DNA of 64,000 nt from NCBI GenBank assembly GCA_902477075.1, contig CABSFU010000006.1:757-64756 (forward strand). The letters are read 5' to 3'. A program made the translations under genes and the position numbers. The notes beneath the pieces were generated by a model. It ran no database searches, was not told where the DNA came from, and was given only the letters and a program-made list of their open reading frames with translations. This stretch comes from an uncultured Bacillales bacterium. Its GTDB lineage: Bacteria > Bacillota_I > Bacilli_A > RF39 > UBA660. Below are positions 17,101 through 20,745 of this stretch, in pieces. Each line of letters starts with the position of its first letter. The stretch's first letter is position 1.

Positions 17101-18009
17101 TTAATTAATTTTTTTACCTTTTTCATTCATAAAAGAAAGTAGTTCAGAATCTGGTTTTGATGATAATTTACCAATTAAAATATCTTTAAATTTTTCTATT
17201 ACACTTTCATTACATTTATCAACTAACTCTGGTGTTGAACAATCATATTTAGTTATAAAATCACAGAATTCATCTACTGAAACAATTATATTTTTTTCTC
17301 TACATTCAAACATATAATCCCATAACATTTTAGTAACAAAATAATTATAAGAACTATCTTGATCAGGTAAGATTGATATACCATGTTCATCTCTTGGAAT
17401 AAATAAATTAGGTATATCAAAAGAACTTGTTATTTCAGGATTTTCATCCAAGAAGTTTAAAAATTCTTCATAATGTTCTTTATTAGCAAATCTCAAAACA
17501 ATTGCATCATTTGCTGGAAATTTTCTGAATTTACATTCTCCAATTTCTTCATCAGGATGATTTTTATAAAGTCTATCTATAAATTCTTGAAGTTTAATCA
17601 TCACTTCAATATACTTTTCTGGTTTTATTGATAAGTAAGCTTTACAAAAAACATTTTTAGTATTTTTTATTGAATAGATAAAATCATCATTTTTAACCAT
17701 ATTAGTAGATGCCCTAAACCAATTAAATGAAACACTCTCTCGTCTTTCAAAAGCTCTTTTTAAACTTTCTTCATCATTTCTTGATGGAGAATATCCTCCT
17801 GGTCTTCTAATACCAAATACATTAGCACGATCAAAGAAGTCATCAAATACCAATAAATCATATTTTAAACTTCTATTTTTTGATAAATCATATTGATTAG
17901 TAATGATTTTATATAATTCATAAAATTCTTTATCATTTTCTGCAGTATCTTTATTTGTAAAGTTATTGCTAATAAAGAATTCATAATATTTATTTAAAAT
18001 CTCTTGCAT
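17101..18009 (-). CDS. hypothetical protein, 302 aa (unit 1 cargo, third gene)
   Basis: Intact ORF, last gene of the helicase operon. No TM segment and no motif I can assign with confidence. Confidence 0.7.
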   Translation of the reverse strand: MQEILNKYYEFFISNNFTNKDTAENDKEFYELYKIITNQYDLSKNRSLKYDLLVFDDFFDRANVFGIRRPGGYSPSRNDEESLKRAFERRESVSFNWFRASTNMVKNDDFIYSIKNTKNVFCKAYLSIKPEKYIEVMIKLQEFIDRLYKNHPDEEIGECKFRKFPANDAIVLRFANKEHYEEFLNFLDENPEITSSFDIPNLFIPRDEHGISILPDQDSSYNYFVTKMLWDYMFECREKNIIVSVDEFCDFITKYDCSTPELVDKCNESVIEKFKDILIGKLSSKPDSELLSFMNEKGKKIN

Positions 18010-18023
18010 ATATTTTTACCTCG

Positions 18024-18290
18024 CTATTTAATATTCTTTTCCCATATTTTTCTTACAGCTTTTAAAGATAATGTTGATAAAGTAAAACCAATTACAGGAA
18101 CAAGTGATGTTAATAATACATAATTATATTCTCTAATTAAATATGAATAAGTAATAACAATAATATAAGTTAAAATTATAATACATATCTTTCTAGTCCA
18201 ACTTGTTTCCCAAGATTTATCTAATTCGACTCTTTTATTTCTTTCTTCTATTTTTTTAATTCTTTCTTCTAAATCCATTTGAATCTCCAT
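18024..18290 (-). CDS. small membrane protein: N-terminal coiled coil plus two TM helices (unit 1 cargo)
   Basis: 88 aa. EERIKKIEERNKRVELDKSWETSWTRK is followed by two hydrophobic helices. The start overlaps the helicase 3' end by about 35 nt. GGTGG RBS. Confidence 0.65.
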   Translation of the reverse strand: MEIQMDLEERIKKIEERNKRVELDKSWETSWTRKICIIILTYIIVITYSYLIREYNYVLLTSLVPVIGFTLSTLSLKAVRKIWEKNIK

Positions 18291-20745
18291 CTAATATTCC
18301 ACCAGTTTCAGCATTTGATAGTCCATTTATTATTTGTAATTTTGTTAAATAATAATTATATAATATTTCATTATTTATTTCTTGGCAATATTGTATTTGT
18401 TTTTTATAAAATTCATTTTGTTCTTCTAAATTTAAAGAACTTACTACTAAATTACTTTCAGCTTCATCAAGTTGAATTGGTGCTCCAGCTTCTAATAATC
18501 TTTGCTTTTGCTCTAATGTATATTTTGTTTTATTTCTTCTAAATGAATTATATAAAGATTGTTCTGCTTTATCTTCAGACTTACCAGATGGCATTTTATG
18601 ATTAATAACTACAAAAGTTATTATTGCATTAGTGCTATCTTCAAGTATTTCATCAATACTATTTTTTCTTTTTTCTTTTACTATAATTCCATTATCAGCT
18701 AAAAGTTTAATTTGCTCTGGTGTATATAAATCTTTCGTTCTTAAATATAATTGATAAAGTGATCTTTCTTCTAAAGTTTCACCACTATCTGATGGCATTC
18801 TTCCATTAGCATTTTTAAATTCTATTAATGCACTAATAGTTGAATCAACTTTATCAACAATTCTAGTGGTTTTTCTTTGAATTTCTTCTTCTGATTTAAT
18901 TTTAACATCTATTCCTGCACTTGCAAGTTTTTGTAATTGTTCATTTGTAAAGTTTTTCTTATTTCTGTTAAATTTTTGATATAATGAGTCTTCATATCCA
19001 CCATTAGCTGTAGATGGCATTCTATCGTTTAAAGTTTTAAATTCTATTACATCATCAACTATTTTTTGGATAATATCTTCACTTGACATTCCTTTTCTAG
19101 ATTCTATTTTAATATTTCTAGATTCTAATATTTTTAGTTGTTCATCCGTATATTGCTCTTTATTTCTTACGAAAGATTTATATAAACTTCTTTCATATAA
19201 ATCATCACTTGAACCAGATGGCATTTTTCCGTTATGTGTATCAAGCCATTCTAAAATACCATAAATAGTTTCTTCATTTTTTTCTTCTGATGTTTTAGGT
19301 ACTACTGTTATACCATTTTCTTCAAGTAATTTAATTTGTTCTTGAGTATAATGTCTTTTATAATATAAAAAAGCAGTATGCAAGGATCTTTCTTCTTTAT
19401 CTTGCGATACACCAGATGGCATTCTTCCATTAATATTCTTAAATTCTATTATTTTTTGAACTACCATTTCACATTTTGATTTAGTAAGTGTATCTCTGCT
19501 TAATGAAGAATCCAACATATCTAAAAAGTCACTAAATTGTTTTAATTCATCTATTATTTTAAATTCTTCTAAATCTATTTCATCATTATCATTTTGAGTA
19601 TTACCATTATGATTACTTAATACTTTCTTTTTAACTTTTTCATATACTTCATATATTGATTTATGACAATTAATGTTATTTACAATATCAAATACAATTG
19701 GATGTGCATTATGTCCTACTGATAAAGCTCGACCTAATTGTTGAAGATAAATAATTGGAGAAATTGTTGGTCTTAACATTATAACACCATCAACATCTTC
19801 AACATGAACTCCTTCATTAAGCATTTCAATTGAGAATAATAATTTAATATGATCATTAGTTGAACTTTCAAAACTTGATACATTTTGTTTGTTATTTTCT
19901 CTACCTTGTTCAGAATAAACTGAATAAATATCAACATTAGGATTAACTTTACTAAACCATTGTTTTGATTCTGCTATCATTTTTTGCATATGTTCATAAT
20001 CTCTACAAAAAACAATATACTTACCACTTTTATTTGGAATATGTTTTTCAAATATCTCGGGTAAACCTTTTGCATTTTCTAACATTCTTCTTGCTTCATC
20101 TAATTTCTTTTGAAAAACTTCTTTATATTCAGGATTTTCAAATCTATTAATTTTTGCTTGAATTCGATCTATATCTTCTTTAAATGAATAAACCGCAGAT
20201 ATATAAGTTGGCATAGGCAATATTCCACTTGATATTGCATCAGTTAAGGATATTTCGGAAGCAATATTTCCATGAAACAATTCTTCTGCCATATTTCTAT
20301 TATCATCCAAATATCTAATAGGTGTAGCAGTAATTCCTAAAACTTTTGCATTAGGATTATTATTTAATAATGTATTAATACTTCGTCCCCATTCTTGTGC
20401 ACCACATCTATGAAATTCATCTAATACTATATTATCAAAATGTAAGTTATTTATTTTATCAGTTGATAGTCTTGAAAAATTAGGATATATAGCACATTTT
20501 AAATTAGGAAAATCACTAACACTTAATCCTTGTGATTTAATATGTTGTTCAAGTTGATCTATTATTTCATATGTAGGAGCAAGAAATAAGCATCTCTTAT
20601 TTCTATTTTCATATAACCATTTTAAAGAAATAAATGATTTACCAGTTCCTGTTGCATGGACTATAGCAACTTTATCTTCTTGTTCAAACCTCTTTTCAAT
20701 TTTTTCATAAGCATCTTTGTTATGTTTATATAATTCTATACCCAT
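18256..20745 (-). CDS. SF2 helicase (DEAD/DEAH-like) fused to five tandem helicase-associated (HA-like) repeats
   Basis: Walker A HATGTGKSF, motif II IVLDEFHRCGA, motif III ITATP and motif VI QQLGRALS. The C-terminal half has five repeats of about 65-70 aa: NGRMPS...ERSLY...R.K..YT.EQ...L...GI. Confidence 0.85.
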   Translation of the reverse strand: MGIELYKHNKDAYEKIEKRFEQEDKVAIVHATGTGKSFISLKWLYENRNKRCLFLAPTYEIIDQLEQHIKSQGLSVSDFPNLKCAIYPNFSRLSTDKINNLHFDNIVLDEFHRCGAQEWGRSINTLLNNNPNAKVLGITATPIRYLDDNRNMAEELFHGNIASEISLTDAISSGILPMPTYISAVYSFKEDIDRIQAKINRFENPEYKEVFQKKLDEARRMLENAKGLPEIFEKHIPNKSGKYIVFCRDYEHMQKMIAESKQWFSKVNPNVDIYSVYSEQGRENNKQNVSSFESSTNDHIKLLFSIEMLNEGVHVEDVDGVIMLRPTISPIIYLQQLGRALSVGHNAHPIVFDIVNNINCHKSIYEVYEKVKKKVLSNHNGNTQNDNDEIDLEEFKIIDELKQFSDFLDMLDSSLSRDTLTKSKCEMVVQKIIEFKNINGRMPSGVSQDKEERSLHTAFLYYKRHYTQEQIKLLEENGITVVPKTSEEKNEETIYGILEWLDTHNGKMPSGSSDDLYERSLYKSFVRNKEQYTDEQLKILESRNIKIESRKGMSSEDIIQKIVDDVIEFKTLNDRMPSTANGGYEDSLYQKFNRNKKNFTNEQLQKLASAGIDVKIKSEEEIQRKTTRIVDKVDSTISALIEFKNANGRMPSDSGETLEERSLYQLYLRTKDLYTPEQIKLLADNGIIVKEKRKNSIDEILEDSTNAIITFVVINHKMPSGKSEDKAEQSLYNSFRRNKTKYTLEQKQRLLEAGAPIQLDEAESNLVVSSLNLEEQNEFYKKQIQYCQEINNEILYNYYLTKLQIINGLSNAETGGILDGDSNGFRRKN
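18465..19475 (-). repeat. five tandem coding repeats (HA-like domains) within the helicase gene
   Basis: The peptide pattern (N/H)(G/D/K)(R/K)MPS...SLY...(Y/F)T.EQ recurs 5 times. Coordinates are approximate. Confidence 0.7.

Follow-up and report, generated by a model that had tools for sequence, protein, structure and literature searches.

A recurrent pair of helicase and small membrane protein genes in the cargo of a decayed integrative mobilisable element of an uncultured Bacillales bacterium

Several described systems can be set beside a three-gene locus that we analysed in a stretch of 64,000 nucleotides from an uncultured Bacillales bacterium (contig CABSFU010000006.1), referred to below as the window. 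The defence systems Hachiman (HamAB) and Shango (SngABC) combine a helicase with small partner genes on mobile elements. Integrative mobilisable elements (IMEs) have been reviewed (PMC5704250). Some of them, such as the Tn4451 type, have a large serine recombinase and a MOBV relaxase. The HA domain has been reported to bind DNA, and fusions of it to defence nucleases and to TniQ exist. HopA1-like LanY proteins are demonstrated phosphoserine/phosphothreonine (pSer/pThr) lyases acting with a partner kinase (PMC9486802). The locus considered here consists of three genes on the minus strand: a superfamily 2 (SF2) helicase or translocase of 829 amino acids (aa) (18256-20745), a small membrane protein (18024-18290 as the longest open reading frame (ORF), of 88 aa) and a 302-aa protein of an undescribed family (17101-18009). 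We found that the helicase and the small membrane protein are a recurrent, conserved two-gene module, and that the three genes together are the cargo at the accessory end of a decayed IME located at a tRNA-Gly gene.

A conserved pair of helicase and small membrane protein

The pair was surveyed in 80 metagenome loci (designated by L numbers) sampled by helicase similarity, 17 of which encode a helicase core at least 56% identical to that of the window. A homologue of the small protein was present in 13 of these 17 close-clade loci, directly adjacent to the helicase in 11 and one gene away in two; the four exceptions constitute a subfamily of 1203 aa with other partners. Among the sampled helicases at 49% identity or less, the small protein was absent in every case. 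The arrangement of the two genes varies: the small gene overlaps the helicase 3' end in L101 and L102, lies about 30 nt upstream of the helicase in L106, L108, L109, L113 and L116, and overlaps the helicase start in L104, L105 and L115, where its product is 38-39% identical to that of the window. In L114 and L117 the order is helicase, adenosine deaminase, small protein (about 50% identity) and then the relaxase gene Mob. Over all paired loci, the identity of the small protein to the one in the window lies between 38% and 99%. That the two genes adjoin in either order, have overlapping frames and diverge in parallel argues for a functional coupling of the two proteins.

The same question was approached from the side of the small protein, using the best 80 of at least 580 species loci. 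Among these 80, the complete trio was found only in L019, nine other loci have the helicase directly adjacent in reversed order (small protein, then helicase), and about 70 have no helicase within 6 kb. This helicase accounts for 8 of the 142 immediate neighbours of the small protein counted in 77 species loci and is the sole recurrent family among them, the remaining neighbours being methyltransferases, helix-turn-helix (HTH) proteins, dehydrogenases and others. The idea that the small protein merely marks an integration hot spot was rejected, given that its neighbours are unrelated across loci and that the helicase, whichever of the two genes comes first, is either overlapping or only a few tens of bases away. 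A DUF3800 gene is found just upstream of the pair in relatives. As a separate observation, L035, L044, L059 and L081 carry a helicase subfamily of 915 aa that is devoid of HA-like repeats, in a conserved order of its own: DUF3800, small membrane protein, helicase and a 118-aa protein of unknown family.

The third gene behaves differently from the pair. The initial annotation had proposed a system of three genes, but their co-occurrence is limited to the near-identical relatives L019 and L101, in which the helicase and the 302-aa protein are each at least 97% identical to those of the window. In L014, whose helicase is 81% identical, a tyrosine integrase and an HTH protein are followed by the helicase, an overlapping 84-aa small protein (81% identical), a Fic protein and a reverse transcriptase; the 302-aa gene is missing and Fic takes the third position. 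In L102 (helicase 73% identical) the small protein comes next and nothing related to the 302-aa protein follows. The third position is held by the 302-aa gene in the window, L019 and L101, by Fic with the reverse transcriptase in L014, and by the adenosine deaminase in L114 and L117. From these comparisons the 302-aa gene appears to be a lineage-specific and unrelated addition, outside the conserved unit.

The assignment of the 829-aa protein to the SF2 helicases, made in the initial annotation from its motifs, agrees with Pfam, in which the core matches ResIII (1.5e-18) and Helicase_C (1.7e-12), DEAD being the only further match. The best sequence matches in the PDB are 7clg (3.6e-16), the type I restriction R subunit HsdR (3h1t, 1e-8) and RadD; 7clg is deposited as 'Putative helicase' and is an entry that we take to be SauUSI. 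In PADLOC the protein matches the type IV mREase model (3.9e-21) and PbeA (7.5e-25). All these PDB and PADLOC matches of the motor concern the helicase core only and stay far under the family cut-offs, and likewise the NCBIfam model for EcoAI R gives 74.7 bits against a cut-off of 550. Helicase homologues number more than 4309. By these similarities the motor is closest to the translocases of restriction systems of type I and type IV.

The C-terminal half of the helicase contains five tandem repeats of about 58 aa each (residues 424-757; 18475-19476, minus strand), delimited by the repeat alignment A5 and by the domain positions of a hidden Markov model (HMM). The pattern N..MPS..E.SL..K..T.EQ..L is invariant across the five, and each is predicted to form a three-helix unit in the AlphaFold2 (AF2) model of the C-terminal half (mean local confidence, pLDDT, 76); the predicted template-modelling score (pTM) of 0.37 means that the mutual arrangement of the units is uncertain. 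These repeats had been described as HA-like, which stands as far as their number is concerned, but no direct match to the HA profile PF03457 was obtained with the whole helicase at E values up to 1, nor with its C-terminal half up to 0.1. The link passes through the relative P0098, which is 49% identical overall: six of its repeats are hit by a profile of our five (1e-9 to 1e-13), and the protein as a whole reaches 41 bits against PF03457, which exceeds the cut-off, its best stretch lying over one of the matched repeats. The repeats may thus be called HA-like by transitive homology only. Many helicase relatives carry clear HA repeats. Foldseek searches with the modelled array returned armadillo-repeat look-alikes only (TM-scores 0.12-0.15), and a profile search of the PDB with the repeats gave nothing informative. 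By analogy with the HA domain, the repeats probably bind DNA. The five-repeat array is kept in all the forms in which the small protein follows the helicase, and in the 777-aa helicase type found downstream of the small protein it is recognisable and diverged.

The small protein consists of a charged N-terminal helix followed by two hydrophobic, transmembrane helices with an invariant VPVIGFTLSTLSL motif (alignment A2), in line with the two such helices described in the initial annotation. Its homologues begin at the fifth codon of the ORF; the real product is therefore most likely 84 aa long, starting from Met5 (18024-18278, minus strand). No match was found in Pfam, NCBIfam, PHROGs or PADLOC. 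The family is large, with 5907 homologues and matches at 580 or more places in a collection with one genome per species. Conservation of the gene starts and stops at the ends of the ORF and most homologues have their own ribosome-binding site, two facts that rule out a conserved non-coding element at this position. Upstream of solitary copies a -10 sequence resembling TGnTATAAT is often found, in most of the loci inspected by eye.

The decayed mobile element and its transcription signals

The element array has its chromosomal attachment point at a tRNA-Gly(GCC) gene (16503-16576, plus strand), preceded immediately by a tRNA-Cys gene (16423-16496), both found with ARAGORN and Rfam. The 3' end of tRNA-Gly is found again, in partial copies, at about 20889-20925 and 26965-27023. 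The first of them (…CGCTCCA…, plus strand, direct-repeat families D8 and D15) resembles an attachment (att) site and forms the boundary between unit 1, which contains the trio, and unit 2. After each copy of the tRNA 3' end the same layout is recognised: a 101-aa gene, a large serine recombinase (with Resolvase, Recombinase and Zn_ribbon_recom domains), a Mob_Pre relaxase and one or more converging cargo genes.

The intact version of this element is L019, from a metagenome-assembled genome of an uncultured member of the Bacilli, another strain. It contains the 101-aa gene, a 612-aa serine recombinase and a 440-aa Mob protein, after which the 302-aa, small and helicase genes converge as cargo; over the trio its match to the window is 98%. 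In comparison with L019, unit 1 lacks the recombinase gene and the greater part of Mob, the deletion junction falling at about 16955-16974 according to blastn collinearity. Its copy of the 101-aa-type gene (16714-16947, plus strand) has 93.6% DNA identity to L019; blast comparison indicates a frameshifted C-terminus, which departs from that of the intact L019 protein, and the product is 33% identical to the unit-2 copy (20984-21289). What is left of the relaxase is a 41-codon remnant of its 3' end at 16961-17083 (plus strand), matched by residues 400-440 of the L019 Mob at 97.6% identity in tblastn; the same region is an 87% direct repeat with 24719-24816. The tRNA-Gly gene, the att-like repeats, the collinearity with L019 and the deletion of the mobility genes establish that the trio is cargo at the accessory end of a decayed IME, so that the cargo slot of a mobile element proposed in the initial annotation is now tied to a tRNA-Gly, to att-like tRNA copies and to an intact equivalent. 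Recombinase, relaxase and flanking att repeats are present both in L019 and in unit 2 of the window.

The mobility genes of unit 2 are also damaged. Its serine recombinase gene (21502-23340, plus strand) is 85% identical to the L019 612-aa recombinase and is interrupted by an in-frame TAA at 22285-22287, where the L019 homologue has a Gln; it is probably a pseudogene, judging from this stop codon. The Mob_Pre gene (23533-24848, plus strand) carries a frameshift near 24484-24494: it is matched by residues 1-317 of the L019 Mob in one frame and by residues 321-430 in another. Across the window, deletions, nonsense mutations or frameshifts have hit the mobility genes but left the cargo ORFs intact, and this retention suggests selection on the cargo. 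In the sister units, other orphan cargo genes occupy the same slot. More generally, all 17 close-clade helicase loci lie in contexts resembling mobile elements, usually beside a Mob_Pre relaxase plus a serine or tyrosine recombinase.

The junctions between the three genes are tight, as the initial annotation had recorded: the helicase and the 88-aa ORF overlap by 35 nt (23 nt if translation starts at Met5), and a gap of 14 nt separates the 88-aa ORF from the 302-aa gene. Upstream of the helicase ATG at 20745 (all on the minus strand) are a ribosome-binding site GGAGG at 20757-20753 and, read from the sequence, an extended -10 promoter-like site TGtTATAAT at 20782-20774. A two-hexamer promoter scan missed this site because of its poor -35 region. 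Moreover, this AT-rich DNA has no more promoter-like hexamer pairs than shuffled sequences do (27 found, 36 expected), so the promoter claimed earlier for the trio is a sequence match only, although its -10 element is indeed in place. Just past the stop codon of the 302-aa gene, a GC-containing hairpin with a T-run (17062-17095) is likely a bidirectional terminator; a similar element recurs at 27140-27188 (direct-repeat family D7). Since the tightly packed genes stand between one promoter-like site and one terminator-like hairpin, they are probably a single operon on the decayed element. The trio had also been described as the most AT-rich stretch nearby, a statement that did not hold: its GC content is 0.239-0.257, versus 0.228 at 22-23 kb and 0.221 at 24-25 kb.

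Some further features of the array were recorded. The cargo of unit 2 (25098-26828, minus strand) is a gene for a 576-aa protein in the slot equivalent to that of the helicase operon, with no Pfam match and no meaningful PADLOC match. A third and further reduced unit, with an att-like repeat, occupies 26965-28176; it has a mini-ORF of 25 codons (27078-27155) in which the N-terminus of the 101-aa gene is fused to the C-terminus of Mob, a deletion like that of unit 1, and its cargo is an orphan gene for 330 aa (27184-28176, minus strand). The island lies about 6-15 kb from the region of rpoC and the ribosomal protein L10 leader (35623-45000), with RNA polymerase beta' domains at 35623-39255 and the L10 leader at 44550-44668.

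The 302-aa protein and its relatives

The 302-aa protein, for which no family had been recognised from the sequence, also has no match in Pfam, NCBIfam, PHROGs or PADLOC. Its AF2 model has a pLDDT of 91.8, and in a Foldseek search of the PDB with this model HopA1 came out on top (4rsx and 4rsw; E = 2.9e-4, probability 1.0), further matches being the lexapeptide lyase subunit LxmY, the phosphothreonine lyases SpvC/VirA and lyase domains of class III lanthipeptide enzymes (SalKC, CuvL). Proteins of the HopA1/OspF-SpvC/LanY group hold ranks 1-11 and 13, and rank 12 is an unrelated monooxygenase; the search against viral structures gave noise only. The model therefore points to a HopA1-like or phosphothreonine-lyase-like fold. 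In an exhaustive profile search, two remote homologues of the protein touched PF17914 at E of about 0.004, below the cut-off.

Among close homologues of the 302-aa protein the residues K123, Y125, S127, K160, R162, N167, D168 and R173 are invariant. In 40 diverse homologues K123 and Y125 remain invariant and K160, D168 and R173 are nearly so, and this conserved K-x-Y…K…R set lies in the core sheet of the protein. The motifs K-x-Y-L-S and C-K-F-R would presumably correspond to the SpvC residues that we take to be K104-x-H106, K136 and R148, an equivalence drawn by motif resemblance only.

A word-indexed search found 39 homologues of the 302-aa protein. Nine of them (41-75% identity) have neither the helicase nor the small protein in their context. 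In L003 the gene comes directly after rplL, in L001 its neighbour is an rpoD-like sigma factor, L005 and L007 have it within stretches of unknown genes, in L010 it is flanked by an IstB-like ATPase and a DDE transposase close to ToxN, and in L013 it adjoins a YhcG/DUF1016 gene. The other three of the nine lie beside CotZ and SpoVA (L181), near PP2C, SpoVE and CotJB (L182), and between Mfd and SpoVT (L183). We noted that relatives at 40-55% identity are often within a few kb of sporulation genes (L181, L182, L183, L005 and L003), which also include SpoIIIAH with Germane and GerE, and SpoVG with YabP. The family may have a chromosomal, possibly spore-related role; chance could also explain this proximity, sporulation genes being many in Firmicutes. 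In L007 (670-4293) the homologue belongs to a run of four co-directional genes with no recorded Pfam match (348, 348, 278 and 205 aa). Neither the small protein nor the 302-aa protein has a tblastn match in the phage and plasmid collections, and the scans of IMG/VR viral contigs were empty for both; a phage or plasmid origin of these two families is therefore not supported.

Possible roles of the pair and comparison with described systems

The reading that we tentatively prefer makes the pair an accessory module of these elements, of a defence or conflict type. A setting of defence-like cargo had been suggested for the locus, and the related elements agree with it: in L105, L106 and L115 the pair is followed by a DRT-type reverse transcriptase (PADLOC RT_UG31, 1.4e-54) and AbiD (1.1e-55), two recognised defence genes that occupy the equivalent slot, while L024 and L108 have a 929-aa protein with weak matches to P-loop ATPases, with AbiD after it in L108. 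According to this proposal, the helicase would load on foreign or aberrant DNA and track along it by means of its repeats, with the small protein as its partner in the membrane, serving as an anchor or as a signal output. The 302-aa enzyme would work independently of them, on protein substrates that carry phosphate. DNA binding, the interaction between helicase and membrane protein and the role in defence are features that we infer from the sequences and their contexts.

A more extended version adds the third gene: the pair would be an undescribed two-gene immunity or conflict module that small mobilisable elements have spread among uncultured low-GC gut Bacilli and Clostridia, and the 302-aa protein would found a new intracellular pSer/pThr-lyase family, serving these elements as a stand-alone effector or counter-defence. 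In this complete form we regard the proposal as rather unlikely.

Several observations weigh against these proposals. The defence-like neighbourhood could amount to guilt by association, which in very small elements is easily obtained, and the Pfam scan of the 829-aa helicase detected no nuclease or other effector domain. At least 580 species genomes encode the small protein, mostly as a solitary gene, with 67-99% identity (67-90% for the solitary gene); the solitary copies sit among unrelated ordinary genes, usually with their own ribosome-binding site, and in a neighbour-joining tree helicase-linked and solitary small proteins are interleaved. Such high conservation of a solitary gene is not typical of toxic defence effectors and implies that the protein has a function exercised without the helicase; this distribution is the strongest argument against a simple model of a sensor with a toxic effector. 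As to the 302-aa protein, its Foldseek TM-scores are low (0.29-0.41, with probabilities near 1), so that the fold match covers the core only, and no HopA1/SpvC member came up when the PDB was searched with the sequence alone or with the profiles A1 and A7. Finally, in several unrelated loci the pair is arranged together with the relaxase gene, an order that would fit a role in element transfer equally well. A co-directional Mob_Pre stands immediately upstream in L024, in the order Mob, a 64-nt gap, the small protein, a 4-14-nt gap and the helicase; the order Mob, small protein, helicase is found also in L037, L108 and L116, and in L016 Mob is followed by the helicase.

These last arrangements are the basis of the main rival explanation, already named as an alternative in the initial annotation, in which the pair serves the element itself as a membrane-tethered, relaxase-associated motor that aids mobilisation, establishment or replication of the excised IME. 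Mob stands at the end of the helicase, adenosine deaminase and small protein run in L114 and L117 as well, and nearly all close-clade helicases adjoin a serine or tyrosine recombinase. However, in elements of 4-8 kb any cargo adjoins Mob, and the sister IME units of the window combine recombinase and Mob with different cargo that includes no helicase. In L014, L074 and L102 the pair accompanies tyrosine integrases, no Mob being called among the ORFs of the stretch covered, and in the window it was kept intact after the loss of the mobility genes. The motor, moreover, is of the restriction-type SF2, whereas conjugative relaxosomes typically use SF1 helicases. On balance we consider such a function for the element less likely than the accessory module.

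It is also conceivable that the proteins have no joint function, and that a lineage-wide housekeeping small protein, a helicase acting alone in DNA metabolism or defence and an unrelated 302-aa enzyme were simply packed together by compact elements. The small protein is solitary in about 70 of the 80 species loci, the homologues of the 302-aa protein stand alone in chromosomal settings, and the genomes are dense: about half of the loci have gaps of less than 60 nt on either side. But an adjacency in 13 of 17 loci, in both orders, with overlapping frames and with divergence down to 38% identity, goes far beyond chance, which makes the lack of any joint function improbable for the pair. Least probable is an obligate three-gene defence system in which the helicase would be the sensor and the small protein the membrane effector, with the 302-aa protein as the third part: the tight junctions, the single promoter-like and the single terminator-like signal, the intact ORFs and the preservation of the trio in several strains or samples at 97% identity or more would fit it, but the trio is confined to one species-level lineage, relatives whose helicase is 73-81% identical have another gene, or none, in place of the third, and the 302-aa family lives elsewhere without these partners.

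If the pair is a defence or maintenance module, it would be a new system from poorly studied gut bacteria known only from metagenome-assembled genomes, and it would give a first functional handle on the HA-domain helicases, which have thousands of members with no assigned role. The small protein is widespread and yet absent from Pfam, and its association with a helicase suggests a way to study it. The 302-aa family, if its predicted activity were true, would extend the HopA1/OspF-type phospholyases beyond secreted virulence effectors and enzymes for peptides that are made on the ribosome and modified after translation (RiPPs).

In the comparison with named defence systems, the trio matched none in PADLOC 2.0, in agreement with the initial annotation. 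Although Hachiman and Shango are alike in layout, the PADLOC HamB2 match to the helicase is limited to residues 20-72 (E = 2.5e-4, 17 bits), that is to about 50 residues of the protein, and no HamA partner was found at the locus: in PADLOC and Pfam, no match to HamA (DUF1837) or to the Sng models was obtained, both partner proteins being without any match. The three components of Shango, the TerB-domain protein SngA, the ATPase SngB and the helicase SngC, are all unmatched by the proteins of the trio. To judge from the libraries searched, the pair, the small-protein family and the HopA1-like family appear to be undescribed, while the overall layout of helicase and small membrane protein on a mobile element is a familiar one.

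The proteins nearest to the ATPase core of the helicase, in both PDB and PADLOC, are the type IV enzymes of the SauUSI type and the type I subunit HsdR. SauUSI has an N-terminal PLD nuclease and a C-terminal DUF3427 target-recognition domain, whereas the helicase of the window has neither and carries repeats instead, and no HsdM/HsdS, methylase or specificity gene was found near the trio. The HopA1/OspF-SpvC/LanY proteins are comparable to the 302-aa protein in the fold of the model and may be so in the K-x-Y…K…R set, which putatively resembles the layout of SpvC. The differences are that a Tyr would replace the catalytic-acid His, that there is no sequence match and no kinase nearby, and that the 302-aa protein would be intracellular in a Firmicute, unlike the secreted effectors or the RiPP enzymes.

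The HA-domain helicases (ResIII, Helicase_C and PF03457 repeats), annotated as 'Helicase associated domain protein', for example those of the Ruminococcus albus 7 megaplasmids, are 41-44% identical in the core and, like the helicase described here, have a C-terminal array of short helical repeats; the latter differs from them in repeats too diverged for PF03457, in its 84-aa partner and in its location on small IMEs. With the Tn4451-type IMEs, the intact element L019 shares the serine recombinase, the Mob_Pre (MOBV) relaxase, a small accessory gene and the cargo slot. The unit of the window that bears the trio differs from these IMEs in having lost both mobility genes, and what marks this locus is integration at the side of a tRNA gene, with three units accreted in tandem.

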